A stretch of 64,000 nucleotides of DNA, taken from positions 68,045 through 132,044 of IMG/VR virus record IMGVR_UViG_3300009184_000033. The stretch is one strand, 5' to 3'. The stretch is from a virus. Positions 11,613-64,000 of the stretch are shown in pieces. The notes under the pieces were generated by a model, which saw only the letters and a list, made by a program, of their open reading frames with translations, searched no databases and was not told where the DNA came from. Positions within the stretch are counted from its first letter, which is position 1; each line of letters begins with the position of its first letter. The position numbers and the translations under genes were made by a program.

Positions 11613-12929
11613 TTATAGTTCTCTGCTTGCCAAAGTTGCAAGAGGAGAACGTTCGCCACGGTCAAGCTTTATGTGTCCAAACAGCTCGTTGCCCTTCAGC
11701 TTCTCGATTGCAATTGCGAGGCCGTTTGAGTGGCGGTCGAGGTACGGAGTGTCAACCTGGTCAGTGTCACCAAGCAGGACAATCTTTGTCCCTGCGCCAC
11801 ATCGAGTCACAATTGTCTTGATCTCATGGATGCTCAGATTCTGAGACTCATCGACAATCACATAACAATTGTTGAAGCTTCTTCCTCTGATGTAGCTTAC
11901 CGGCGAGATTTCGATGTTTCCCTTCTGGCGCATCATCTCAAAGTAGGACGGGTCATGGAATGCGCTCCTGAAGTTGTCAATGATGGGCATCAGCCACGGT
12001 GCCATCTTGTCGTCGATAGTGCCGGGTAGGAATCCGAGGTCGCGACCGACAGGTTCGATGGACCTCGTGATCACAATCCTGTCGTACACCTTGGCGTTGA
12101 GACCTGACATGCCGGCAACAAGAGCCAAGAAAGTCTTTCCAGAGCCGGCTAGCCCCGTGAGGCTTACCAGTGGAATGTCCTTGTTGGTGAGCAGGTGGAG
12201 CGCCGCGGTCTGCTCCTTGCTTCTCGGCTTCACGCCGATCGACTGCTCCATGAACATCTTCGGCTTCACTACCTTTCCCTTGTTGTAGATGCCGATGAAT
12301 CCCTTCTGCGGATCAATGTCGCTAGTCGCATGGACCAGCTGGTTCTCATAGAGCACCACCTCTGGATCAATGAGCTCGACCTCTCCGTCTCGGTAGAAGT
12401 CATCCACATCTCTTGTGGTCACGTCGATTGAGCACTGACCAGTGTATGCCTCTGATCCGTCTCGATAAGCCTTGGGGATGTCCGTGTAGTAGTCCTCGGC
12501 GCGGACACCGAGGGCATCGCACTTGACTCTGAGATTTATGTCCTTGGAGATGACTCTGACTTCTCGGTCAGGATTCTGCGACTTGATGGCCAGTGCGACA
12601 GCGACGATCTTGTTGTCGCCCTTCTCGATAGGAAACTCGACTGGCGTGGCATCTTCCTCGACAGGAACCCGCTCGACTCTGATCACAATGTCGGTGTTTG
12701 GAACCTGGACTCCGTCATGCAAGCTGCCAATCTTACGGAGCGAGTCGAGGAATCTATTGACCTCTCTCGCGGCAGATCCAATCTGCTCCTTCTTCTCCTT
12801 GAAGCGGTCGAGCTCTTCCAGAACGATCAGGGGAATGATAACATCGTTCCCGTGGAAGAACTTTAGCGAATTCGGATCGTACAGCATCACACTAGTGTCG
12901 ATTACTAGAAGCTTTCTCTGGTTCAACAT
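11613..12929 (-). CDS. phoH: PhoH2-type protein (PIN domain + PhoH ATPase)
   Basis: N-terminal VIDTSVMLYDP..VLEELDRFK (PIN); GLAGSGKT; RGRSFNNCYVIVDESQNLS; VLLGDTDQVD. Confidence 0.92.
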   Translation of the reverse strand: MLNQRKLLVIDTSVMLYDPNSLKFFHGNDVIIPLIVLEELDRFKEKKEQIGSAAREVNRFLDSLRKIGSLHDGVQVPNTDIVIRVERVPVEEDATPVEFPIEKGDNKIVAVALAIKSQNPDREVRVISKDINLRVKCDALGVRAEDYYTDIPKAYRDGSEAYTGQCSIDVTTRDVDDFYRDGEVELIDPEVVLYENQLVHATSDIDPQKGFIGIYNKGKVVKPKMFMEQSIGVKPRSKEQTAALHLLTNKDIPLVSLTGLAGSGKTFLALVAGMSGLNAKVYDRIVITRSIEPVGRDLGFLPGTIDDKMAPWLMPIIDNFRSAFHDPSYFEMMRQKGNIEISPVSYIRGRSFNNCYVIVDESQNLSIHEIKTIVTRCGAGTKIVLLGDTDQVDTPYLDRHSNGLAIAIEKLKGNELFGHIKLDRGERSPLATLASREL

Positions 12930-18783: not shown

Positions 18784-20730
18784 TCAGCTATCGCGCCACA
18801 GGTTGTTGCTGGCAAAGGTAAGGACCTCTTCCGCAGACTCCGGGGTGTATCCGTACTCGTCAACCATCGTGGTGATCATGTTGGAGTACTTCTTCTGCTG
18901 CTCGTCGTCCCTGGTCTTCGACTTGGTAACGATGCGCGCCATGTCCTTGACGGAGGCGATTAGGTAGCCCTCGATAGCCTCCTTGAGCGGCTCATAGGAG
19001 GTGTAGCTCACCTTCTCGTTGCGACGCATCTTGGCAAACATATAGGCGGTGACGTCTGACCTGAACCCGTCTCGAGAGGAAGCCACAATGCCGATCTGCT
19101 CCTCGATTGCTCGCATGAACTTCTCGTCAGGCTCACGCTCCTCTCTTGTGACTCGATCCTTGATCTTCTGGCGAGTGGTGTGGGCCTCGGCATTGTCAAG
19201 GTAGTTGTCAAACAGGGACTGTGCTTGCTCCTCGTAGGCCGTCACAAACGCCTTTGCGATCTCGGTCTCGAGGATCTTCAGGTACTCCTCGCGGACGACC
19301 TTCTGGATGAGCTCAAGGCACCGGGTGCGGAACTCTTCGTCGATTACCTGCTCCTGCACCTGCTTGGTGACTGCGGACATCACCGAGATGGGCGTGATGA
19401 AGCTCTTTTCGGAATCAGAGAGCGCGTTGTCAATTGCCTTCATGATGAATCGGGTCGAGATGCCATTCATACCCTCATCACGGGACTCCTCACGGAGGTC
19501 CTTGATGTCGATCTTCTTGACCCTGCCCTTCTCGATCACTTCCTCACCGTTGTAGATCTTCATCTTTGTCATGATGTCGCACTTCTGGGTCGGCTTCAGG
19601 CGGCTCATCACGGAGAACATCGAAGCGACCTTGATCGTGTGAGGGGCAATGTGCGCCTTGAAGTCAGACTTCTTGAGGATCTTCTCGTAGATCTTCATCT
19701 CCTGCGCCAGCTCGAGGACATAGGGGACGTTGATCTTGACGATTCGGTCGAGGATCGCCTCGTTGGTGTGCTGCGCGCGGAACCGGTTCCACTCGGCCTC
19801 GTTACAGTGCGCAAGGATCACACCATCGAAGTAGATCATGTCGTGCTTGCCAGGGGACGGGACTCGCTTCTCCTGGGTGGCAGTGATGATAGTGTGGAGG
19901 AACTCGATCTCGTTCTTGAAGACTTCGACAAGCTCCACGATGCCACGGTTTCCGACGTTGAACGCGCCGTTCAGGGACAGGATGCGGGGATCGTCCTCAG
20001 AGAACTTGTCAAGCTTTGAGATGTCCTCAGAGCCGATAAGGACCGATACGTCCTGCGAGTTTGCATCCATGGGCGGGACCACTGCAACACCACGACGAGC
20101 GCGCTGTGAGAACGTAGACTGTACGACCTGGAACTTCTCGTACTCGCCCTTGTACTTCTCGAGGAGGACGTGGCGGGCAACGGGACTGAGGTCACCCTCG
20201 ATCTTCACGCCAAGCAGCTCTTCGAACTCTGGACGAAGGGAGCGGGGGATGAGCTGGAGAGGCTCTCCGCGCTGGGGGTCGTCCTTGAGGTGGTAGAACG
20301 GCTCAGCGTGCTCCACCGCCTTCTTTATGTGTTCTGCAAGGGCAGACTTGCCGGAACCGACAGGACCCATGAGGAGCAGGACCTGGCGGCTCTCCTCACC
20401 CTTGAGGGATGCGGACTTCAGGAAGCGCATGATCTTTGCAATGACTCGCTCATGACCAAAGAACTCGTCCTTGAAGTACTCGTAAAGCTTCAGGTTGTCA
20501 CCGTCAAAGACCTTACGCTTGCGCGGGTCCTCATCCGGTATGATAGAGACTCCGAAACCCTCGATGGTATCGTTGAGTCGCTTGTGGGCGTGCTTCACAA
20601 CGCCCGGGTTATCACGGACCAGGTCGAGGTACTCAAGAAAGTTACCCTCGAACTTGGTGTCCGACTTGTTGTCCCTCTGGCTCTTGATGAGGTCGAGAAA
20701 CTTGTTCTTGCTCTTATCCGACATTGACAC
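18784..20730 (-). CDS. prkA: PrkA/YeaG family AAA+ ATPase / Ser kinase
   Basis: EFFGHE, LLMGPVGSGKS (Walker A), NRGIVELVEVFK, ILAHCNEAEW, GMNGISTRF. Confidence 0.93.
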   Translation of the reverse strand: MSMSDKSKNKFLDLIKSQRDNKSDTKFEGNFLEYLDLVRDNPGVVKHAHKRLNDTIEGFGVSIIPDEDPRKRKVFDGDNLKLYEYFKDEFFGHERVIAKIMRFLKSASLKGEESRQVLLLMGPVGSGKSALAEHIKKAVEHAEPFYHLKDDPQRGEPLQLIPRSLRPEFEELLGVKIEGDLSPVARHVLLEKYKGEYEKFQVVQSTFSQRARRGVAVVPPMDANSQDVSVLIGSEDISKLDKFSEDDPRILSLNGAFNVGNRGIVELVEVFKNEIEFLHTIITATQEKRVPSPGKHDMIYFDGVILAHCNEAEWNRFRAQHTNEAILDRIVKINVPYVLELAQEMKIYEKILKKSDFKAHIAPHTIKVASMFSVMSRLKPTQKCDIMTKMKIYNGEEVIEKGRVKKIDIKDLREESRDEGMNGISTRFIMKAIDNALSDSEKSFITPISVMSAVTKQVQEQVIDEEFRTRCLELIQKVVREEYLKILETEIAKAFVTAYEEQAQSLFDNYLDNAEAHTTRQKIKDRVTREEREPDEKFMRAIEEQIGIVASSRDGFRSDVTAYMFAKMRRNEKVSYTSYEPLKEAIEGYLIASVKDMARIVTKSKTRDDEQQKKYSNMITTMVDEYGYTPESAEEVLTFASNNLWRDS

Positions 20731-20733
20731 CTC

Positions 20734-22044
20734 TCAGATTTCGAAGGGTTCGCCTTCCAAAGTTGTTAGGAGCTTGACTTCGCTCTTCCAGATTTTTGAT
20801 ACGTGGCCTATGACTTTTTCTGCGTAATTGATCTCTAGATCTCTGCCATCGTGCTCGTGGTGAAGCACAAGAACGTTTCCCTTGTCGATCGATTCAACAT
20901 AGATCGTTGGTATCGTATTTGCGCCAACTTGCCTGATTAGGTTATGCTTCACCTCTTTCCAGCCCATCTCATCAGAGACATCCTCGACAACGTAGTTCTC
21001 CTTCTTCCTGCCGTAGGAGAAAAGGTTCAGCTCCTCGCACATCTCTTGGGTGAGGTAGTTTCTGATGAAGGACTCATCGTTGCACGCCTCTCTTGCGATG
21101 AAGCATTCCTCTAGTCCCATACGCTTCTCTATATCGTGAAACATGTGGAAGCCGAGGTGGTAAGGATTGATTGATCCGATCGCGGGTCTGATGACCTGGT
21201 TGTGCGACTTGATGAATGGAAGGTGAAGTTCAGGCGGGAGATTGAGCTCGTGGAGGATCCGGTAGTGCCAGTAGCTGGCCCAGCCCTCGTTCATAATCTT
21301 GGTGCGGATCTGCGGCATGAAGTACTGTGACTCAGTCCTCACAATGTCGAGAACGTCCCTCTCCCAGTCTTCCATGTTTGCGTGCTCGCCCAGGAATCCC
21401 AGAACATCGTACTCCTTCTCCAGAGGAACCTTCTCGAGGCTGTCCATTGAGACCTTGAGTCCGCGTTCCTTCTGCTCCTTGAAGCGTAGTATCATCTCCT
21501 TCTTCTTCACAGAGTGAGGAATGTACTCCTTCGGGAAGCGGTAGGTCTGGAACTGGATTGCGTGCGCAGAATCCAGTAGCTCCTCCACCTTGATGATTCC
21601 AATGCTTGGGTCCTCGATGTAGCCCTGGATGCGCTTTCTGGCATTCCTAAAGCGGTGCACAATGATGTCCGGCTGGGTGCTGGAGAACATCCTGTTGTTC
21701 TTGAAGAAGTCACTGTGGCCAACACAGTGCGCCATGATGAGCACCTGCAGGTACAGAGGATTCTCCCGCATCAGGTAAGCAATGCTGGGATTCGAGTTGA
21801 TGATGAGCTCGTATGGAAGACCCTCAGCACCAATGTTATACATCTGCTGAGTGCGCTCGAAAGACTTTCCGAAAGACCAGTGCGGGTAGTGGCTCGGCAT
21901 GCCGTGGTATGACATGTGGCCCATCATCTCGTAGTAGTCGCAGGTCTCGTACACAATTGGAAACCAGTCGAGATTGTGGCTCTCTGCGATCTCAATGATC
22001 CTCTTATCGTATTCTTCCAGTTCCTTGAAGGTCCAATCTGACAT
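20734..22044 (-). CDS. spoVR: SpoVR/YcgB family protein
   Basis: YPHWSFGK, LPYELIINSNPSIAYLM, AHCVGHSDFFKNN, TKIMNEGWASYWH, NPYHLG. Confidence 0.93.
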   Translation of the reverse strand: MSDWTFKELEEYDKRIIEIAESHNLDWFPIVYETCDYYEMMGHMSYHGMPSHYPHWSFGKSFERTQQMYNIGAEGLPYELIINSNPSIAYLMRENPLYLQVLIMAHCVGHSDFFKNNRMFSSTQPDIIVHRFRNARKRIQGYIEDPSIGIIKVEELLDSAHAIQFQTYRFPKEYIPHSVKKKEMILRFKEQKERGLKVSMDSLEKVPLEKEYDVLGFLGEHANMEDWERDVLDIVRTESQYFMPQIRTKIMNEGWASYWHYRILHELNLPPELHLPFIKSHNQVIRPAIGSINPYHLGFHMFHDIEKRMGLEECFIAREACNDESFIRNYLTQEMCEELNLFSYGRKKENYVVEDVSDEMGWKEVKHNLIRQVGANTIPTIYVESIDKGNVLVLHHEHDGRDLEINYAEKVIGHVSKIWKSEVKLLTTLEGEPFEI

Positions 22045-23213
22045 TAAAGCTTCCCTCCAAAGAATGACTTGAATGCTGGCCAGATGTCTTTCGGCGTGTT
22101 GATGTTGGCGATCTTGAAGTTGCTGTCCTTGAGCGGCTGGAGCAAGTTTCCGAGCATCGAGTCGTTGTGAGCCCAGCGCATCTTGTCCTTCTCAGGCTCA
22201 ATCTCACAGTAGCCGTACAGCTGGCACAGTGGCTTTAGCACTCTGAGTCGCTCAAGGAGCTTTGGATTGTCGTTGGAGAAGTTGTCACCGTCGCTACACT
22301 GGAACGCATAGATGTTCCAGGCGGACTGGTGGTACCGCTTCTCAATGATCTGGCTCACCATCTCGATTGCCGGCGAGACCGTGGTGCCGCCAGAGGATCC
22401 GCGCTTGAAGAACTGGTCTTCCGTGACCTCGTAGGCGGCGGTATCATGGGCAATGAATACGATCTCGGTGTTCTCATACCGTGAGCGTACAAAGTGGTAT
22501 AGCAGGAAGAAGAAGCTCCGTGCGAGATACTTCTTCTCATCGGTCATCGAGCCTGACACGTCCATGATGAAGAAGATCACGGCGTTCGAAGAGGGCTGTG
22601 AGACCTGCTTGATGTGCTTGTAGCGCAGGTCGTCATCATTGAACGAGAAGCTCTCCTGCTCCTCTGGATCATAAGAGCCGCTCGACTTTGCCACGTTTCG
22701 CCGGCGGAGCATGCGCTTCACCGTCTCCTTCTTATCAAGCCTGGGCCTGATTCCCTCGTTCCTGTAGCCGTGGCGCTTTGGCTTCTCGGTGATGATCTGC
22801 TTTAGGGACTTCTTCTCCAGCTCGGGAAGCTCTAGGCTATCGAAAAGGTAGTGTGCGAGCTCTTCGAGCGTGATCTCGACCTCGTACACTTCCTCACCAG
22901 CATCCTCGCCGGCCTTTCCTGGCTTTCCCTTCTGGGGCTTTCCGGCACTGCCGACCGTCTGTCCCCTGGATACGTCCTTTCCTGGAGCAGAACCGACCTG
23001 GCGATTTCCATTATCGCCATAGACGAATCGATACTCCTTGATGCCCTTCACGGGAATCTTGATCTTCTTCTTACCGTCCTGACCTATGATCGACTCATCC
23101 GCGACTATGTCGTGGATTCCGTCCTTGATTGCCCTATCGATCTTCTCTTTGTGACGTCGGCGGTCAGAAGCCGACCTGTCAGCGGAGGTCTTGTGCTCTT
23201 TGAAAACGGACAT
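22044..23213 (-). CDS. yeaH: YeaH/YhbH (DUF444) VWA-like protein
   Basis: VIFFIMDVSGSM (MIDAS), FFLLYHF..Y, SSGGTTVS, WNIYAFQCSDGDN. Confidence 0.92.
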   Translation of the reverse strand: MSVFKEHKTSADRSASDRRRHKEKIDRAIKDGIHDIVADESIIGQDGKKKIKIPVKGIKEYRFVYGDNGNRQVGSAPGKDVSRGQTVGSAGKPQKGKPGKAGEDAGEEVYEVEITLEELAHYLFDSLELPELEKKSLKQIITEKPKRHGYRNEGIRPRLDKKETVKRMLRRRNVAKSSGSYDPEEQESFSFNDDDLRYKHIKQVSQPSSNAVIFFIMDVSGSMTDEKKYLARSFFFLLYHFVRSRYENTEIVFIAHDTAAYEVTEDQFFKRGSSGGTTVSPAIEMVSQIIEKRYHQSAWNIYAFQCSDGDNFSNDNPKLLERLRVLKPLCQLYGYCEIEPEKDKMRWAHNDSMLGNLLQPLKDSNFKIANINTPKDIWPAFKSFFGGKL

Positions 23214-38224: not shown

Positions 38225-39373
38225 CTAGAAGTCAGAGGCGCCGATCTGGTAATTGGGGCGACCCTTCGCCTCTTCTGTGAAGACAATGCGGAACTTGCTT
38301 CCATAGTCCTCGACATCGAAGACGTAGGTCCCCGAGAACGGATCGATACGCGTGAGATTGTCGGTGTGGAGCTCGAGATAGAGCGTCTCGTCAGAATCGT
38401 AGTCGTCCTCATCTTCCTCATCTCGGGACTTGGCTCGCTTGGCGACAACTTCCTTGATCCGCACCGAAATGCAGTTGTCGTACCGATCGGAAGAGATCAT
38501 GTGGAGAGGAGAAGCATCGAGCTGGGACGGAGACTCAACCTCCCACTTGCGACCCTTCTCGCCGGGAGTGGATACAGAGGTCTTCCACTTCGACTTCCCG
38601 CCGTGACCAATGGGCTTCACGTTGAGGATCTCAACGCATTCCTCGAAGGGCCCACCGTAGCGGTTGAGCTCATCTACTAGGACCTGCAGCATGTCGAAAT
38701 TGAACTCATCGCAGGTAGCGCTGAGACCGATGATGGGATCTGTGAAGCTTTGGTCATCCAGACAGTCCTCGCAGTACTCCTTGATGAAGGAGGCATCGAG
38801 ACCGCTGAAGGCGATCGCGTACCGGAGCCGGCTGGGGCGATTGTGGAAGAAGCCCTGCACCGAGTACTTGTCGTTGCAGGTGATGACCATGATCTTGTTC
38901 CGCGCCGTGTAGACGCCGTCAAAGAGGGTGAGAATCGACTCCTGCGCCTCCCGGTCATAGAGCTTCTCAAACTCGTCAAAGATGACAATCGCCGGCTGCT
39001 CGATTCCCTGGATCGTCCGCATGAAGCGCTCGTCCGAGAAGGGAGTGTTGACGATGATGACCGGAAGACCAGAGTTCACCGAGACCTGCTTCGCGAGGAG
39101 GGTCTTGCCGGAGCCCTTCACGCCACTGAGGAACACGCCCACCTGGGTCCCAGGCTGGCGATTCTCGAAGGTCTCGAGGATTCGATCCGCGTACCGGTTG
39201 GTCTTCCCGTAGAGCTTCTTGGGGAGGGTGAAGGGCTCGCTCTCCTCGAGGAAATACTCCTTCGTCAGGGGATTCTGGCAGACTGTGTAGTTTCCCGGCG
39301 GAAGCCTGTCGCGGACATCGAGACGGGCATCAGGAGTGAGGGACCAGGCGTTGTCATTCTTGAGGAACTTCAT
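38225..39373 (-). CDS. AAA+ ATPase
   Basis: GVFLSGVKGSGKT (Walker A), IVIFDEFEK (Walker B), NRPSRLRY. Confidence 0.88.
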   Translation of the reverse strand: MKFLKNDNAWSLTPDARLDVRDRLPPGNYTVCQNPLTKEYFLEESEPFTLPKKLYGKTNRYADRILETFENRQPGTQVGVFLSGVKGSGKTLLAKQVSVNSGLPVIIVNTPFSDERFMRTIQGIEQPAIVIFDEFEKLYDREAQESILTLFDGVYTARNKIMVITCNDKYSVQGFFHNRPSRLRYAIAFSGLDASFIKEYCEDCLDDQSFTDPIIGLSATCDEFNFDMLQVLVDELNRYGGPFEECVEILNVKPIGHGGKSKWKTSVSTPGEKGRKWEVESPSQLDASPLHMISSDRYDNCISVRIKEVVAKRAKSRDEEDEDDYDSDETLYLELHTDNLTRIDPFSGTYVFDVEDYGSKFRIVFTEEAKGRPNYQIGASDF

Positions 39374-40186: not shown

Positions 40187-41680
40187 TCAGTACCGGTACT
40201 GATTCGACTTGTAGGGACCTTCGACGTCGACTCCAATGTAGCTTGCCTGACTCTCGGTAAGCTTCGTGAGCTTTGCACCGAACTTATCGAGGTGAAGTCG
40301 GGCAACCATCTCATCGAGGTGCTTCGGAAGCGTGACCACGCTCACATTGAGATCAGGAAGCTTGATGCGATTATGACCGTAGAGCTCAGAGAACTTGTGG
40401 AGGTCGATCTGGGCGAGCACCTGATTCGTGAAACTGTTGCTCATCACAAGGCTCGGGTGACCGGTCGCGCATCCAAGATTCACGAGTCGACCCTCGGCGA
40501 GGATCAGGATCTTTCGACCCGTGTCGTCAAACTCCCACTCGTGGACGCCTGGCTTCACTTCGGTCTTAGTAACCAGCCGATCACGGCGCATGCGCTCGAG
40601 GCCTGCCATGTCGATCTCATTGTCGAAGTGGCCAATGTTACAGACGATGGCTCCGTCCTTCATCTGGGACATGTGCTCGGCGTTAATGATGTTCTTGTTC
40701 CCAGTTGCGGTCACAAAGATGTCAGTGTGCGGGAGCGCATCCTCGACCGTAGTGACCTCGAGGCCCATCATACATGCCTGGAGCGCACAGATCGGGTCAA
40801 TCTCAGTGACTGCAACTCTGGCATACTGGCCTCGGAGGCTATCTACTGAACCCTTACCCACGTCACCGTAGCCACAGACCAGGACCCGCTTGCCTGAGAC
40901 CAGCACGTCCGTAGCACGATTGATGGCATCGACGAGAGAGTGGCGGCAACCATAGAGGTTGTCGAACTTCGACTTGGTCACCGAATCGTTGACGTTGATC
41001 GCCGGGAACAAGAGGGTGCCGGCATCGCGCATCTCGTAGAGCCGGTGCACGCCAGTAGTAGTCTCTTCAGAGACACCCTTGATGTTCGCCGCCAGAGGAG
41101 TCCAGAAGTTGTTACCCTTCTCCCTGCGGACATCATGGATGAGCTGGAAGATGACGGCTTCCTCCTCCGAAGATGCAGTAGCTAGGTCTGGCAGCGTATC
41201 ATTCTTCTCGTGCTGGTAGCCGAGATGAACTAGAAGGGTCGCATCACCGCCATCATCGAGGAGGAGCGTGGGACCAGAACCATCAGGCCAGGCGAGCGCC
41301 TGAAGGGTGCACCACCAGTACTCCTCGAGGGTCTCACCAGCCCATGCAAAGACCCGGGTGCCGGTGGAAGCAATAGCTGATGCCGCGTGGTCCTGCGTCG
41401 AGAAGATGTTACAGCTCACCCACTGCACATCTGCGCCGAGGTCTTTAAGGGTCTCGATCAGCACAGCCGTCTGGATAGTCATGTGGAGTGAACCCATGAT
41501 CCGGGCGCCCTGCAGGGGCTTCTCATCCTTGAAGCGATTGCGCACGGACATGAGCCCGGGCATCTCCTTCTGGGCGAGCTCAATCTCCTTCCGACCCCAC
41601 GTCGTCGTCTTGTCAGAATTGTCCTTGACTCTGCTCTGCATGCCCGAGAAAAGCTCGAGGCCAGTATTCATGAATTTCAT
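40187..41680 (-). CDS. ahcY: S-adenosylhomocysteine hydrolase
   Basis: [61 protein letters not shown]; start taken at TAATG overlap. Confidence 0.96.
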
Positions 41681-42846
41681 TAGATCTCCAGGTAACGCTT
41701 GATTGTTGTAACCATGTCCAACTTCTCCCAAGTGAATTCGCCTCGCCCAAAGTGGCCATACGCGGCGGTGCGCTGGTATCCCGGCTTGCGCAGGTCCAGG
41801 CGCTCAATGATTCCCTTCGGCTTCAGCGGGAAGACGTCCTTGACGCAGCGAATGATCTGATCCTCGCTTACCCTGTTGGTGCCGAAAGTATCGACCATCA
41901 CGCTCACCGGTTCTGCGACGCCAATCGCATAGGAGAGCTGGACCAGCGCTCGAGAGCAGGCTCCGGAAGCGACGAGGTTCTTTGCGATGTACCGACCCAT
42001 GTAAGCCGCCGAACGGTCAACCTTGCTGGGATCCTTGCCCGAGAAGGCGCCACCGCCGTGGGCACCGTGGCCACCGTAGGTGTCGACGATGATCTTGCGA
42101 CCCGTGAGACCCGAGTCTCCCATCGGTCCGCCGATCTCAAACTTGCCCGTGGGGTTGACATAGAACTTCGTCTTGTTGTCGATCATGTCAGAGGGCAGGT
42201 ACCGCTTGATGAGACCAGAGACGACCTGCTCATAGATCTCGCCGTGGGCACGGGGCTCGTGCTGGGTAGACAGGACGACGGTATCGATGCGTGAGATCCT
42301 CGAGTCTCGGTACTCCACCGTCACCTGGGCCTTGCTGTCCGGACGGACCCAGGACCAGTCGCTGTCGGTCTTGCGGAGCTTCGAGAGGTTCCGCATCAGG
42401 TCGTGGCTCCACTGGATCGACGCCGGCATGAGCTCTGGCGTCTCAAGGACTGCGTAGCCGAACATCATGCCCTGGTCGCCAGCACCCATCTCAGAGAACA
42501 GGCCAGAGCCCTCATCGACGCCCTGCGCAATATCGGGAGACTGCTCCTCGAGGGCGACCATGACGGCGCAGGTGTTGCCGTCGAATCCCTTGTCAGAGTG
42601 GTTGAATCCGATGTCGTTGATCGTCTTCCTCACCACCTTTGCGATGTCGACCTTGACTTCAGACGGCACGGTGATCTCTCCAGCTACAACGACCAAGCCG
42701 GTCTTCACGAGGGTCTCGCAGGCCACCCTCGAGTTAGGATACTGCTGGAGGTAAGAATCCAACACAGCGTCAGAGATCTGGTCACAGATCTTATCTGGGT
42801 GCCCCTCTGATACGGACTCAGATGTAAACAGGTAGTTCTTCGGCAT
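41680..42846 (-). CDS. metK: S-adenosylmethionine synthetase
   Basis: [54 protein letters not shown]. Confidence 0.97.
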
Positions 42847-42847
42847 G

Positions 42848-43279
42848 TTACCACTCCTCCCCAAGACCGACCCAGTCCTTGTACTTCTCTTCTCCGCCGC
42901 GGGTCTTCCAGTCAGAGTCGATTGTGAGCTTCGAGCTGATTCCACCTCGAGGATTGAACACCATCACGACCCGGAGCCGGTCTGGCTCGTACGCTGCCAT
43001 GAGATCGTCGTAGACGACATTGATCAGCCGCTCATAGGAGATGATCTTCTCGCGGAACTGGTGGAGATAGTACTTCAGAGACTTGAGCTCCACCACCTTG
43101 GAATTCGGATAGATGGTGATGAAGAGGTCTGCGAAATCTGGCTGGTCCTTGACACCGAGAAACGTTACCTCGGGTGACTTGATCTTGACCTCGTAGCCCT
43201 TGCTCGAGGGATTGGGAATTGCCTTCAGGATAGAAGGGTCGCTCCAGACTCTTGACAATTGTCCTCCTTGATTTGACAC
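42848..43279 (-). CDS. QueF-like T-fold protein lacking the catalytic Cys
   Basis: [35 protein letters not shown]; protein contains no Cys. Confidence 0.85.
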
Positions 43280-59701: not shown

Positions 59702-60097
59702 CTATACGTGCTCGATGTCCATATCATGAAGGATCATCTGTGTTCCATCCTCCAACTTCACGTAGTGGTGACGGTACTCCTCTCGACCTCCCGGCCCAGG
59801 AACCACGACACCCTCCATCCCGTTGGCGTTCTTGTACTTGTCGGAATGGATTCTTCCAGGTGCTCCCTTCGGCATGTTGACGTTGAGGTTGATCCTCACT
59901 GCATCTCCGTGCTTGAAGAACACCTTCTGTTTCCACACAGGACTGTATAGATCACGCCAGTCATCGCTCTCCCTTCTCTTGAAAGTATCGGTCCACGGAC
60001 GTCCGGGAATGTTCCTCATGATGTCGTCATCGTACTCGGATTCCCTCAGGATCTCCTCACGGACGATCTTGCGAAGCTGTGATTCTGTGATTCTCAT
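59702..60097 (-). CDS. Leader-family protein with KOW/SH3-like C-terminus
   Basis: MRITESQLRKIVREEILRES; FKHGDAVRI..GVVV..YVKLEDG. Confidence 0.8.
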   Translation of the reverse strand: MRITESQLRKIVREEILRESEYDDDIMRNIPGRPWTDTFKRRESDDWRDLYSPVWKQKVFFKHGDAVRINLNVNMPKGAPGRIHSDKYKNANGMEGVVVPGPGGREEYRHHYVKLEDGTQMILHDMDIEHV

Positions 60098-60121
60098 GTT
60101 TGTTACCCAGGAGTAGAAATG

Positions 60122-60454
60122 TCAATATTGTCCGCGAGAATAATCGGGCTTTAGTCTTCCCCAGTACTTGCCAGTCTTGGGATCCCTGTAAACCAGTATG
60201 TTTTTGTGTGAACCCGTGCGGCCTCCCAGCACAACGGTGTTGTATGCAGCCTCAGGGCTAGGGTAGAGCATGTACCCTCCATATACGGGTTCATCTATAA
60301 CTGGTTCCCCGTTTGGAAGTCTGTAGTTCGGTCCGATCACCTCGGTCTTCGGTTCAGGATAGCGCTTCTCGAAGGGCAAAGTGTTCCAGTCTTCCTCATC
60401 GTCATTGAACATTTCACGAATTAGATTCCTGAGCTGGGATTCAGTGATTCTCAT
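60122..60454 (-). CDS. Leader-family protein (MRITESQLRNLIREM)
   Basis: Start reassigned; GGAGAG RBS; ATAGTTA upstream. Confidence 0.8.
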   Translation of the reverse strand: MRITESQLRNLIREMFNDDEEDWNTLPFEKRYPEPKTEVIGPNYRLPNGEPVIDEPVYGGYMLYPSPEAAYNTVVLGGRTGSHKNILVYRDPKTGKYWGRLKPDYSRGQY

Positions 60455-60473
60455 TCTCTCTCCAATACTCGAG

Positions 60474-60480
60474 TAACTAT
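60474..60480 (-). promoter_or_regulatory. ATANTTA motif
   Basis: 19 nt upstream of 60454. Confidence 0.55.
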
Positions 60481-60752
60481 ACTGCCGCCGGTGAAATTTC
60501 ACCATCTGTGCCGACAGACGTGCCGACAGACGTGCCGACAGACGTGCCGACAGGCACGAGGTTGCGCGGGTGGTAGGAGACCACCCGCCCCTCGAAGAGC
60601 ACGTCGACGGCGCCGTCAGGCGCCCAGACCTGCCGCTCGCGGTCGGTGGGCCCGATCACCACGCCCAGCCCCGCCGGGTTCTTCGCGTGCGGGCTCCGCC
60701 GGCGCACCAGCGTCCCCGCCTCGATCCCCACCACGCCCGGCGTGTCCGGCAT
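60477..60752 (-). CDS. Small KOW/SH3-like protein with VGTS repeat tail
   Basis: EAGTLVRRR..LGVVIG; AGGAGG RBS; start reassigned. Confidence 0.6.
   Translation of the reverse strand: MPDTPGVVGIEAGTLVRRRSPHAKNPAGLGVVIGPTDRERQVWAPDGAVDVLFEGRVVSYHPRNLVPVGTSVGTSVGTSVGTDGEISPAAV
60508..60553. repeat. 12-bp tandem repeat (gtgccgacagac) x3.8
   Basis: Exact copies at 60508, 60520, 60532, partial at 60544. Confidence 0.95.
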
Positions 60753-60827
60753 CTCGCCTCCTGCTGGGATATAATCAGGCGCGTGACCGCAGGTCACCCC
60801 GCCGGAAAAAAATCCGGCCGGCGCCGC

Positions 60828-61118
60828 TCAGCCCCGCCGCACCCGGCATGCCGCACTGAAGGCGTCCCACACCGCCCAGTGGGCCTCGGCGTCCCGGGAT
60901 CCCAGGTCCTCGGCACCCGCGAGCACCGCATCGAGCCGCCTCTGCCCGTCGAGCACCGCGTCGCGGACCTCCGCGAGGATCCCGTCGATCTCCTGGTCGA
61001 CCCGGTCGCCGTAGAGCCCGTACTTGCTCCCGCCGAAATCCATGTCGTCGTGTGACTCGGCGAGGCGCCTCGCCTCGTCCCGCACGATCCGCCTCAGCCG
61101 TGACTCCGTGATCCGCAT
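60828..61118 (-). CDS. Leader-family protein (MRITESRLRRIVRDEARRLAES)
   Basis: AGGAG RBS; ATAGTTA upstream. Confidence 0.75.
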   Translation of the reverse strand: MRITESRLRRIVRDEARRLAESHDDMDFGGSKYGLYGDRVDQEIDGILAEVRDAVLDGQRRLDAVLAGAEDLGSRDAEAHWAVWDAFSAACRVRRG

Positions 61119-61140
61119 CTCTTGAACTCCTGTACGCGAG

Positions 61141-61147
61141 TAACTAT
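61141..61147 (-). promoter_or_regulatory. ATANTTA motif
   Basis: 22 nt upstream of 61118. Confidence 0.55.
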
Positions 61148-61352
61148 ACCGACCCGGTGGCATGTGTGGATGCAATGAAAGTGCACCGGTGCGCTGTCAT
61201 GCGGGGGCCCGCAGGGCCCCGGCCAGCCGCCGCCTTGGATTCCATGGCATGCCGGACGGGTGAACCACGCGGGGCACGGGAGTTGGCATGCTGTCTCCCC
61301 ATCGGTGGCATGCATGACCCCGCGCGCGGGGAGGCCGGGGGACCCGGCGGGG

Positions 61353-61533
61353 CCCAAAAATCTCCCGGGAAAAAATCGGGCACGGGGGCACACGGGACTC
61401 TCGTTCCCGCGCGGGAAATCGGGTACCTCGGGAGAATCGGGAAGGGGTGGGCCCAGTGGAAGCCAAAATTTTCTCGGGAAAAACCAGACTCGAGAAGCCC
61501 AGTCAAAGCCAAAAAGTTCTCGGGAAAAAAAAG
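61353..61533. repeat. Three imperfect A-tract repeats CCAAAA-N-(C/T)CGGGAAAAAA
   Basis: Copies at 61353, 61462, 61508 in a GC-rich non-coding stretch. Confidence 0.75.
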
Positions 61534-61642
61534 AATTCCACCTTAGCCAGGCCTCCCCGCGAGGCCCCCGACAGAGCATGCAGCGGGCCCCCAGAGGGGG
61601 GCCCCCTGGGCCCATTTTTGGGGGCCCTCGAGGGGGCCCCTC

Positions 61643-61754
61643 TGTAACGTTACAATGGCCCCCTGCGGGGGGCTAAATAACATGTTACAGGGGGTGTAAC
61701 ATTGGGCCCCATTGTAACGTTACAATCACTGGGGTGTAACCCTGTAACGTTACA
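61643..61754. repeat. Cluster of TGTAACGTTACA palindromes and TGTAAC half-sites
   Basis: Full at 61643, 61713 (16-bp ATTGTAACGTTACAAT), 61743; GGGGTGTAAC at 61691, 61731; TAACATGTTA at 61678. Confidence 0.9.
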
Positions 61755-61755
61755 C

Positions 61756-62109
61756 TCACCACGCCGCTGGGTAGCGGTCCACGTCCGCCTCCCAGTCACG
61801 GCAGGCGTCGGCCTCGCGGCCGTGGGCCAGGAGCTCCTGCGTCATCTCCTCCCACTCCTCGGCGGTGCGCTCCCGCCAGTCGTACCCCCGGGCGCGGAAG
61901 TTGCGGACCTCCTTGTGCGTCTCCGCCCAGTCGCAGTAGGCGAGGTAGCTGTCGAGCTCGGCGCCCGTGTGCACCCCGGACTCGGCCCAGTACTCCGCGC
62001 TCTCGGGCAGGGTCCCGTAGAAGGTGAGACCCATCGCCTCCGCCCGGGCGATCGTGGCGAGGTTGCGCTCCGCGGCGCGGGTGGCGGCGGTGGTGGTGTT
62101 GCTGGTCAT
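61756..62109 (-). CDS. Hypothetical protein (probable early gene)
   Basis: AGGAGG RBS within repeated cassette. Confidence 0.75.
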   Translation of the reverse strand: MTSNTTTAATRAAERNLATIARAEAMGLTFYGTLPESAEYWAESGVHTGAELDSYLAYCDWAETHKEVRNFRARGYDWRERTAEEWEEMTQELLAHGREADACRDWEADVDRYPAAW

Positions 62110-62114
62110 CTCTC

Positions 62115-62158
62115 TGCCTCCTGAGATCTGTTATTCTGGCGAGATGCGGGTGGGAAGG
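62115..62158 (-). promoter_or_regulatory. Repeated promoter/RBS cassette, copy 1
   Basis: CCTTCCCA-N14-GAATAACAGATCTCAGGAGGCA. Confidence 0.75.
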
Positions 62159-62198
62159 TCCGTGCGGGATTTATTTTGTGCCGCGCCCGGAGCGCAGT

Positions 62199-62405
62199 TC
62201 ACTGCGCTCGGTAGATCGACTGGAGACCGGCGTTCTTCGCGTCCCGCTCGTTGTAGTACCCGCCGCCGGACCAGGTCCCCTTCGGGCCCGTCACCTCGAA
62301 GTGCCACCCGAAGCGGGCCACCTTCCAGGTGGTGAGGGTCCAGCCCGGGAAGTTGTTCACGAAGACGTCGAGGTCGAAGGTCTTGACACTGAGTCGGGTC
62401 TGCAT
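62199..62405 (-). CDS. Hypothetical protein (probable early gene)
   Basis: Preceded by cassette copy 2. Confidence 0.7.
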   Translation of the reverse strand: MQTRLSVKTFDLDVFVNNFPGWTLTTWKVARFGWHFEVTGPKGTWSGGGYYNERDAKNAGLQSIYRAQ

Positions 62406-62407
62406 GT

Positions 62408-62451
62408 TGCCTCCTGAGATCTGTTATTCCGGTGGGACCGCGCTGGGAAGG
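62408..62451 (-). promoter_or_regulatory. Repeated promoter/RBS cassette, copy 2
   Basis: Identical 22-mer and 8-mer, same 14-nt spacer. Confidence 0.75.
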
Positions 62452-62467
62452 ATGCGCGGGACTTATT

Positions 62468-62704
62468 TCAGGCCGCGCTCATGAGCTTCTTGACGCGCTG
62501 TCCCTGCTCCTTGATGACCTCGCCGGTCTTCGTGTCCACCATCTCCAGCGCCCAGTAGGCACCGGCGGACGACTGCTCGTGGTGGAAGACCGCCTTCGCG
62601 ACCAGGAGCTGGCGGACCGGGAACCAGCTGAAGGGCTGGTACTCGACCATGTCGCCGACCGAGTAGCTGACGAGGGTCTTCGTGTTCGTGACTTCGCGGA
62701 TCAT
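62468..62704 (-). CDS. Small KOW/SH3-like protein (probable early gene)
   Basis: SYSVGDMVEY; preceded by cassette copy 3. Confidence 0.7.
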   Translation of the reverse strand: MIREVTNTKTLVSYSVGDMVEYQPFSWFPVRQLLVAKAVFHHEQSSAGAYWALEMVDTKTGEVIKEQGQRVKKLMSAA

Positions 62705-62709
62705 TCTGT

Positions 62710-62753
62710 TGCCTCCTGAGATCTGTTATTCTCGCCGCACCCAGTTGGGAAGG
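62710..62753 (-). promoter_or_regulatory. Repeated promoter/RBS cassette, copy 3
   Basis: Identical 22-mer and 8-mer, same 14-nt spacer. Confidence 0.75.
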
Positions 62754-62848
62754 AGGAACTTGCACAATTTTGTCCGCGCGCAGCGTTGCCCGGCGCGCCC
62801 CCGATTTCCAGCAGGCCATGGTGACCTATTGGCCAGGGGCCAGCAGCC

Positions 62849-64000
62849 TCAGGCGGCCTTTGCGGCCGGCCACTTCATCTTGATGACCACGTCGTTCGAC
62901 TGGGGCTTGAACTGGAGTTCACCGCCCGGGGTGATCAGCCAGCACCGGCGGGCGACGCAGGGACCGGGGTCCGAGGCGTACCCGTCCGTGATGATGATGC
63001 CGCCGTCGAACTCGTCCCGGCTGGCGACCAGGTGCTTGCTCGGCGCGCTGAAGTCCGTCCCACCGGTGCGGGTCCGGGTCGGTCCCTTCGCCTTGCCGCG
63101 CTTCCATTCCGCCTTGGACTTCAGGTCGACCTCGGTGTCGAAGTGGAAGGTGGTGAACGACGTGAACTTGGTGAAGGCCTCGAGCTCCCCGAATGCGAGG
63201 GCGAGCTCGTCGTCCCCGACCGAACCCGACTGGTCGATGTAGACTGCGAGCGAGGAGGTGTACCCGCGCTTCGCACCGGTCGCGAGGCCCGGCATCCGCT
63301 TGTTCAGGCGGGACCAGGAGGTCGTCCGGCTGCCGCGGCGGGAGTTCCCGACGAAGTGCTTCAGGACCTCCTGCCAGGGGACCTCATTGGCGAGCATCGC
63401 ACGGATGTTCTCGCGCATCTCGGCCGAGACCGAACCCCACTGGCCCTTGGAGTCGCAATCGCTCGCCGCACGGCGGACGATCTCCTTGAGCTTCGCCTTC
63501 GCCATGGCCTTGGACTCGGCGGACTCATCGCCGGCGGCGTCCCCATCGGACGGGTCGCCACCCCAGTCCCCGTGGTCGTCCATCTCACCGGCGCCACCGG
63601 CACCATTCTCGATCGTGTCCGCAATCTCGGGGTCCGCCATGAACCGGGCGAAGTACTCCTCTGAGGAGAGACCCTTGGGCAGGTCGCGGATGAAGTCCGA
63701 CAGCTTCTGCCAGCGGGCGACCGCCTCGGCACCCATCTTCGCCTGCTCCTTCGCGGTCAGGGGCTTGAACGCCTCACCGGGGATGAGGCCACAGTCCGGG
63801 AGGAGTTCCCGGGCGATCTGGGAGTTGATCGCGCAGTCGGTGGAGTAGTTCCACACCCGGTGGGGTTCGTGGCGTCGGGTCGTACAGTGCTCGTAGACCA
63901 GGTGCAGGCACTCGTGGATGTTGAGACCTTTGACCTTGCCGGCGGACTGCTTGGCGAGCGTCGCGAGGAACTTCGGGTTCCAGTAGAACCGGATGTCGCC
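62849..64000 (-). CDS. DUF2201-type HEXXH metallopeptidase + VWA protein, 5' end outside window
   Basis: Frame open to 64000: YWNPKF..IHECLH..WNYSTDCAIN; VYIDQSGSV (MIDAS), GGTDF, IIITDGY. Confidence 0.88.
   Translation of the reverse strand, partial: GDIRFYWNPKFLATLAKQSAGKVKGLNIHECLHLVYEHCTTRRHEPHRVWNYSTDCAINSQIARELLPDCGLIPGEAFKPLTAKEQAKMGAEAVARWQKLSDFIRDLPKGLSSEEYFARFMADPEIADTIENGAGGAGEMDDHGDWGGDPSDGDAAGDESAESKAMAKAKLKEIVRRAASDCDSKGQWGSVSAEMRENIRAMLANEVPWQEVLKHFVGNSRRGSRTTSWSRLNKRMPGLATGAKRGYTSSLAVYIDQSGSVGDDELALAFGELEAFTKFTSFTTFHFDTEVDLKSKAEWKRGKAKGPTRTRTGGTDFSAPSKHLVASRDEFDGGIIITDGYASDPGPCVARRCWLITPGGELQFKPQSNDVVIKMKWPAAKAA

Follow-up and report, generated by a model that had tools for sequence, protein, structure and literature searches.

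QueF, GTP cyclohydrolase I (FolE), and QueF-L are the only paralogues entered in a 2016 table of COG0780/0302. QueF-L, the archaeosine synthase of Crenarchaeota, is a T-fold paralogue of QueF with a new reaction, which retains the Cys and its thioimide and has lost the NADPH site. FolE is likewise a T-fold relative; it has Cys/His/Cys zinc ligands and no NADPH motif, and the same conserved Glu binds its guanine or pterin. The role of this Glu as the anchor of 2-amino-4-oxo-pyrimidines, i.e., guanines and pterins, is established for the fold (PMC13740343). A second set of described enzymes relevant to the locus reported here comprises MetF/MTHFR, Mfr, and Mer, all of which are (beta-alpha)8 barrels of approximately 300 aa. 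MetF uses FAD. The known methylene-tetrahydropterin reductases proceed through acid-catalysed formation of a 5-iminium cation, and in the flavin-free mycobacterial Mfr, a hydride is passed directly from NADH to the 5-iminium of methylene-THF (PMC11094777). Because Mfr works without flavin, the reaction can run on NAD(P)H as its sole cofactor and does not require covalent catalysis.

The window (the whole stretch of DNA analysed, 64,000 nucleotides) makes up the 3' half of an IMG/VR virus record of 132 kb, which is a jumbo-phage fragment given that the record is estimated to be only 39% complete. It carries a cysteine-less gene of the QueF family, hereafter X (also labelled 'QueFL'), whose coordinates are listed in Table 1 together with those of other features. 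The ORF at this position (42848-43279, minus strand) translates into a 143-aa protein with zero Cys that matches PF14489, as expected from the original prediction of a QueF homologue without any cysteine. The ORF and its QueF homology were thus upheld, whereas the start was revised. The TTG at 43258 is more likely to be the start codon, giving a gene of 136 aa at 42848-43258 rather than 42848-43279, because a perfect AAGGAGG precedes it and the public gene calls are also 136 aa long (P0002 is the identical protein). The extension up to the GTG chosen in the original prediction is probably not translated.

Table 1. Positions of X, its flanking genes, and other features in the window.
Feature	Position	Strand	Basis or remark
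Cys-less QueF-family gene (X), 136 aa	42848..43258	(-)	ORF, translation, PF14489, TTG start, RBS
Stop codon TAA of X	42850-42848	(-)	Read from sequence
Shine-Dalgarno AAGGAGG, spaced 3 nt from the downstream TTG start	43262..43268	(-)	Read from sequence
In-frame upstream extension to GTG	43259..43279	(-)	Contains the RBS itself; residues unconserved in homologues
metK (S-adenosylmethionine synthetase)	41680..42846	(-)	All three S-AdoMet_synt domains full length
ahcY (S-adenosylhomocysteine hydrolase)	40187..41680	(-)	PF05221 451 bits, PF00670 249 bits; tblastn coordinates
AAA ATPase, 382 aa, downstream of ahcY	38225-39373	(-)	66% identity and same position in viral loci L005-L007
PrkA-SpoVR-DUF444 trio	18784-23213	(-)	Complete; Pfam models matched nearly end to end
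PIN-PhoH fusion protein	11613-12929	(-)	PF13638 + PF02562

The window protein matched the Pfam QueF family PF14489 at 80.3 bits (cut-off 27.3) and the NCBIfam model TIGR03139, 'preQ(1) synthase', at 96.6 bits (cut-off 86.9), and annotation pipelines will therefore name it QueF. All of its Pfam matches were to QueF families, and PF01227 (FolE) was absent among the matches with E values up to 0.1. An AlphaFold2 monomer model built from 70 homologues (pLDDT 83.8, pTM 0.80) had a T-fold, and its best PDB matches were B. subtilis QueF (4fgc and 4f8b; TM 0.72, rmsd 1.5-1.6 A); the TM score to QueF-L (5jyx) was 0.62. By sequence and model, the protein is thus assigned to the QueF superfamily with a T-fold, and it is presumably oligomeric. 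A search of the ESM Atlas returned only automatically named QueF clusters.

Active-site residues were compared in a phmmer alignment to B. subtilis QueF (4f8b/4fgc; 37-39% identity), with residue roles taken from PMC13740343; the arguments drawn from them rest on the sequence alignment and a ligand-free monomer model. The catalytic-loop segment of the B. subtilis enzyme, SLCPKTGQPDFA, aligned with the loop around Gly42 of the window protein. The Cys required by QueF for the catalytic thioimide (Cys55) is absent, its place being taken by Gly42, after which one residue is deleted, and no other Cys occurs anywhere in the protein. The general acid Asp62 is retained as Asp48 and the N1/N2 anchor Glu97 as Glu83 (in SYE), with an invariant Tyr (Tyr82) in place of the catalytic His96. 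Further changes are Phe95 to Ser81, Asp98 to Arg84, and Cys99 to Leu85. Kept features include Glu78 (Glu64), PRGG, and the NADPH motif, ELKSLKYY at residues 64-71, which conforms to the published pattern E(S/L)K(S/A)hK(L/Y)(Y/F/W). The C-terminal motif DSDW..GG..W is specific to the Cys-less family. The original prediction had described a Cys-to-Gly change and a loop one residue shorter than EFTSLCPxTGQPDFA, together with retention of the QPDF Asp, ExKSLKxY, and the Glu of SYE; in the alignment, this description is correct and, if anything, understated, because the changes at His96, Phe95, Asp98, and Cys99 and the DSDW..GG..W tail went unmentioned. Relative to QueF-L, the Cys-less protein is the reverse case, having lost the Cys and kept the NADPH site.

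A word-indexed search yielded 2,753 relatives of similar length, the best 120 of which were 67-100% identical to the window protein and all contained PF14489. When 70 homologues from viruses and bacteria were aligned, the invariant positions were Gly42, Gln46-Pro47-Asp48, Glu64-Leu65, Lys69, Tyr71, Arg76, Ser81-Tyr82-Glu83-Arg84, Arg111-Gly112-Gly113, Asp121-Ser122-Asp123-Trp124, Gly128-Gly129, and Trp136. The motifs TF(L/E)G...QPDF, SYER, and DSDW are invariant throughout a clade that comprises thousands of proteins. When representatives at 50% identity were searched exhaustively, nearly all matches with readable motifs above approximately 95 bits had TF.G and no Cys, while the canonical EFTS(L/V)CPxTG proteins mostly scored at or below approximately 80 bits. 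The loss of Cys is neither a sequencing error, as had been considered for the Gly codon (Gly42 is present in 70/70), nor a chance event, and is a family-wide trait.

One genome per GTDB species was scanned, and the family signature (62-72% identity to the phage protein) turned up in at least 289 species of bacteria. The carriers include Chitinophagaceae (Niastella, Flavitalea, and Longitalea), Cyclobacteriaceae, Flammeovirgaceae, Marinilabiliaceae, Syntrophorhabdus and related deltaproteobacterial MAGs, Bacillota, Zixibacteria, and CPR lineages. In a maximum-likelihood tree, a very long branch with 100/100 support parts the Cys-less clade from the canonical unimodular QueFs of related bacteria, and branches within the clade are short and largely track taxonomy. 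The sequences are best explained by neofunctionalisation of a unimodular QueF. The viral sequences grouped with those of CPR (Lloydbacteria, Saccharibacteria, and Parcubacteria) and streamlined 1.6-Mb bacteria in one clade of moderate support (80/96), distinct from those of the Bacteroidota and the deltaproteobacteria; possible reasons are exchange between phages and hosts with small genomes, or the binning of viral contigs into CPR MAGs. Among the longer cluster representatives, the 293-aa P0130 contains a Lar-like 'restriction alleviation' domain (PF14354, 31 bits) followed by the Cys-less QueF domain. Apart from this Lar-like domain, which is N-terminal, the only fusion partner seen in these representatives was a FliM that is probably chimeric, and neither gave a clue to function.

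In the phage, the ATG of metK begins 1 nt past the stop codon of X (taacATG), and the ATG of ahcY overlaps the stop codon of metK (TAATG); X-metK-ahcY is translationally coupled. The trio recurs in viral loci L005-L007. In a second viral clade (L014-L022 and L024; 52-56% identity), ahcY directly follows the Cys-less QueF gene, and in one of its members (L019), metK lies directly upstream. Overall, ahcY adjoins X in 13 of the 23 viral loci, and these 13 fall into two or more clades sharing only 52-56% identity. Close relatives also occur on other large viral contigs, up to 274 kb in length. A 160-kb ENA contig (L001) carries a relative among genes for EF-Tu and three aminoacyl-tRNA synthetases, a poly(A) polymerase-like gene, and many small unannotated ORFs; this contig looks like a giant virus or a huge phage with translation genes. 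Among the cultured phages in INPHARED, no close homologue was found: all 76 matches were below 60% identity and annotated as ordinary QueF, and there is therefore no annotated precedent for the Cys-less protein in cultured phages.

For 80 bacterial loci, we called ORFs, clustered the neighbours of X, and annotated the large clusters with Pfam. Unlike that of canonical QueF, the genomic context of X is the methionine/methyl cycle and not queuosine. Cyclobacteriaceae, Flammeovirgaceae, Marinoscillum, and a Crocinitomicaceae MAG have a split metH (HcyMT-X-MetH_C), in which X is located between the homocysteine S-methyltransferase and the pterin-binding/B12/activation part. The order metY(-metX)-X-hom was found in 13-14 Chitinophagaceae and metH-X in a Halanaerobiales MAG, and thyX was directly upstream of X in 15 Syntrophorhabdia-type loci. 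Neighbours of these methionine/methyl-cycle/thyX types, on the same strand and within 3 kb, were present at 39 of the 80 loci. About half of the bacterial loci, as well as the CPR and several viral loci, had no informative neighbour, and no neighbouring gene was universal across the loci, the commonest being found in only 15/80. Six further carrier loci, taken from the order-level sample described below, included two more split-metH arrangements, ahcY-metK-X (L138), metK-X (L140), and, in a 1.6-Mb genome (L139), ahcY-metK-X-HcyMT-MetH_C with all genes on one strand. Since ahcY-metK-X(-metH) and metK-X occur in these bacteria, the phage X-metK-ahcY is, as judged from gene order, a piece of a bacterial methyl-cycle operon.

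SAM-I riboswitches (RF00162; 71-84 bits against a gathering score of 44.4) were detected on the coding strand at the head of X operons in L058, L062, L069, L082, L089, and L077, and X is therefore in the SAM regulon of Bacteroidota and a Halanaerobiales MAG. In L033, a SAM-I riboswitch controls a divergent metH. Neither preQ1 nor THF riboswitches were found by Rfam searches in 18 loci. Directly upstream of thyX-X or X, one Syntrophorhabdia-type locus (L073:6830-7201) and 13 others encode a conserved protein of 123 aa that has no Pfam match and may belong with the thyX-X functional unit.

The distribution of X was compared with that of MetF in two samples. In the order-level sample of 151 genomes around a Cyclobacteriaceae carrier, MetF (PF02219) was found in 0/7 carriers, and a strong MetF in 121/144 non-carriers (Fisher 7e-6, a value that ignores kinship, with approximately four carrier lineages in the sample). 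Among the MetH-positive genomes of this sample, 6/8 without any MetF match carried X, compared with 0/117 of those with MetF (Fisher 9e-8, likewise ignoring kinship); the two exceptions (G031 and G061) have MetH and lack both MetF and X. Three other genomes (G076, G077, and G140) have MetH and only weak MTHFR-like matches (E ~1e-5, ORFs of 309-315 aa). These five genomes may point to further, unrecognised forms of MTHFR. In the class-level sample of 77 genomes around thyX-linked carriers, where MetF-like genes are common, two or more full-length MetF paralogues were present in 0/28 carriers and 32/49 non-carriers (Fisher 1.5e-9, again ignoring kinship, as the carriers are clustered). Despite the non-independent counts, the anti-MetF direction is the same in two unrelated phyla. 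Of the 26 carriers tested, 18 have MetF, including all Chitinophagaceae and Marinilabiliaceae tested; it is absent from the remaining eight, among them each of the four Cyclobacteriaceae-type genomes and the two other metH-linked ones. The Marinoscillum operon contains both X and metF (HcyMT-X-MetH_C-MetF).

The combination of the T-fold Glu anchor with an intact NADPH motif makes folate reductions the obvious candidates. From the comparative evidence (sequence features, fold, conservation, operons, riboswitches, and phyletic patterns), we predict a substrate, product, mechanism, and physiological role for X: it would encode an NADPH-dependent, flavin-free reductase that converts 5,10-methylene-THF to 5-methyl-THF and stands in for MetF, a reading to which we assign a probability of roughly 55%. 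With the same slight preference, we regard the protein as a functional analogue of MetF/MTHFR and not a homologue, as its 136-aa T-fold subunit has no sequence or fold relation to MetF, Mfr, or Mer. It would share with MetF the reaction and the role, as well as the operon position beside metH under a SAM riboswitch, and with Mfr the direct hydride transfer from NAD(P)H to the 5-iminium cation. A broader formulation, for which we consider the odds to be even, is that X represents a fourth, structurally unrelated class of MTHFR (T-fold, flavin-free, and NADPH-dependent) that displaced or doubled MetF in several bacterial lineages, acts as a portable methyl-cycle booster in jumbo phages together with metK and ahcY, and is misnamed preQ1 synthase throughout by current annotation pipelines.

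In the proposed mechanism, the invariant Glu83 and the Val63/Glu64 backbone region would hold the 2-amino-4-oxo-pyrimidine moiety of the pterin, just as their counterparts in QueF hold preQ0, and the invariant Asp48, the counterpart of the general acid Asp62, would help the imidazolidine ring open to the 5-iminium cation. NADPH on the ELKSLKYY motif would then give its hydride directly to the exocyclic methylene on N5. When the pyrimidine rings are superposed, C7 of the 7-deazaguanine would correspond to N5 of the pterin, and the nitrile/imine carbon of preQ0 to the exocyclic methylene of 5-iminium methylene-THF, the atom reduced by MTHFR. As the iminium is already electrophilic, the thioimide and the Cys would be dispensable; the Cys could have been lost while the NADPH site, Asp48, and Glu83 stayed invariant because the iminium route needs no covalent catalysis. 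The replacement of Cys by Gly, Phe by Ser, and His by Tyr, the shorter loop, Arg84, and the tail with DSDW..GG..W would create the space needed for a six-membered ring and a pABA-glutamate tail; the small residues at positions 42 and 81, the short loop, Arg84, and the tail are plausible adaptations to a bigger, carboxylate-bearing substrate. During infection, phage X, metK, and ahcY would raise the flux through the methyl cycle by supplying methyl-THF for the host methionine synthase, synthesising SAM, and removing SAH. The phage would thereby provide three of the four activated-methyl-cycle activities, with the large B12 enzyme coming from the host. X is not simply a replacement for MetF, because 18/26 carriers keep MetF and Marinoscillum has both genes in one operon; it may be a second isozyme, perhaps NADPH-specific or differently regulated, or catalyse an adjacent folate reaction. 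The thyX linkage fits an MTHFR only loosely, in that ThyX and MTHFR both use methylene-THF and NADPH.

Several other functions were weighed against the MTHFR assignment. The same pterin-anchor and NADPH features would suit an NADPH-dependent reductase of another folate or pterin, such as a DHFR in FolA-less ThyX users, a methylene-THF dehydrogenase, or an enzyme repairing oxidised methyl-folate. The position of thyX directly upstream of X in 15 loci, the lack of FolA in the thyX-linked and Bacillota carriers (FolA is absent from 7/26 carriers in all), and the coexistence with MetF in 18/26 fit such a non-MetF role. However, FolA is absent from 77/77 genomes of the class-level sample, carriers or not, so its absence says nothing about X, and all Bacteroidota carriers tested have FolA; moreover, a DHFR or repair role predicts neither the exclusion with MetF nor the metH/SAM-riboswitch operon position, and we consider this alternative unlikely. 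We give a lower standing to a non-catalytic subunit or regulator of the methionine cycle, with folate, SAM, or SAH as a possible ligand or with an accessory function in methionine synthase, and rate it as improbable. The tight linkage to metH halves, metK, and ahcY, the small size of the protein, and the coexistence with MetF in many genomes would accord with it, but neither the NADPH motif nor the Asp of the general acid nor the substrate-binding Glu varies across large evolutionary distances, which is typical of an enzyme, and confinement to MetF-less genomes in the order-level sample would be unexpected for a MetH accessory factor. The original suggestion of a non-catalytic sponge or regulator binding guanine, preQ0, or nucleotides is unsupported: besides the invariance of the NADPH motif and the T-fold Glu, the gene behaves as a methionine-pathway biosynthetic enzyme, exclusive with MetF in one order, and most carriers lack a preQ0 pathway. 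The other parts of that prediction fared better. Its 'different chemistry' is supported, and so is its link to SAM metabolism, which is conserved far outside this phage, in the other viral clades, the ahcY-metK-X-metH and metH-X-metH operons, and the SAM-riboswitch regulons; in the neighbourhoods of the Cys-less homologues, which it had proposed to compare, methionine/methyl-cycle genes recur and queuosine genes do not.

Continued action on 7-deazaguanines, as a Cys-independent preQ0 reductase, in another preQ0/preQ1 reaction, or, in phages, in making SAM-methylated modified bases, appears the most doubtful of these functions. The closest homology is to QueF, the TIGR03139 cut-off is passed, methylated preQ1 in phage DNA is already known, and in 6/26 carriers QueC and TGT are present with X as the sole QueF-family member. 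Against this, the C55A and C55S variants of QueF are inactive (PMC13740343), QueC is found in 10/26 carriers and absent from 16/26, and the 132-kb phage record (~39% complete) contains no TGT/DpdA, QueC, QueD, or FolE; the lack of preQ1 riboswitches in the 18 loci also speaks against it. A second, canonical bimodular QueF occurs in only four of the 26 carriers, all Marinilabiliaceae, where it sits beside queC and away from X. In the class in which X is the sole family member, 45/49 non-carriers are without any QueF, and QueC was present in 5/5 of those tested. 'QueC without QueF' is thus the norm in that class, and no QueF substitute is needed; substitution of X for canonical QueF was accordingly rejected, as there is no anticorrelation between the two. 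DpdL, the proposed CDG decarboxylase of phage deazaguanine pathways, was also considered and set aside, as it is a paralogue of QueD and not a relative of QueF.

If the MTHFR assignment is correct, folate reduction joins the only reactions known for the QueF family, nitrile reduction and amidine transfer on 7-deazaguanines, an active site having been reused with the hydride geometry unchanged and the covalent step dropped. The Cys-less proteins would likewise add a new class to the methylene-tetrahydropterin reductases, until now all TIM barrels, and account for the 'missing MetF' of bacteria that contain MetH, such as Cyclobacteriaceae. A systematic misannotation, which arises because the protein passes the NCBIfam preQ(1) synthase equivalog cut-off, would be corrected; carriers are at present wrongly credited with QueF and wrongly called methionine auxotrophs if this reading holds. 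Large phages would then carry a three-gene unit that supports the host methyl cycle, which matters for how SAM-dependent reactions are kept going in infected cells. The fold and the family are already known, whereas the predicted chemistry and physiological role are new. The published literature covered, which is incomplete, yielded no account of a T-fold MTHFR or of QueF proteins forming a subfamily without Cys, and GapMind 2026 and a paper on folate-independent methionine synthases make no mention of this family.

A search of the 132-kb record (~39% complete) for a phage SAM consumer found neither a DNA methyltransferase of the common families (PF01555 and PF00145) nor ThyX. Downstream of ahcY, an AAA ATPase gene is shared with the three viral loci that have the same trio (Table 1). 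The window also encodes a PIN-PhoH fusion protein and a PrkA-SpoVR-DUF444 trio of the yeaG/ycgB/yeaH-type stress module, the latter being an unusual viral cargo. Finally, the G+C content rises from approximately 0.53-0.56 to 0.63-0.65 across the last 4 kb of the window (60001-64000), which is also the end of the record and could represent a different module or a junction.
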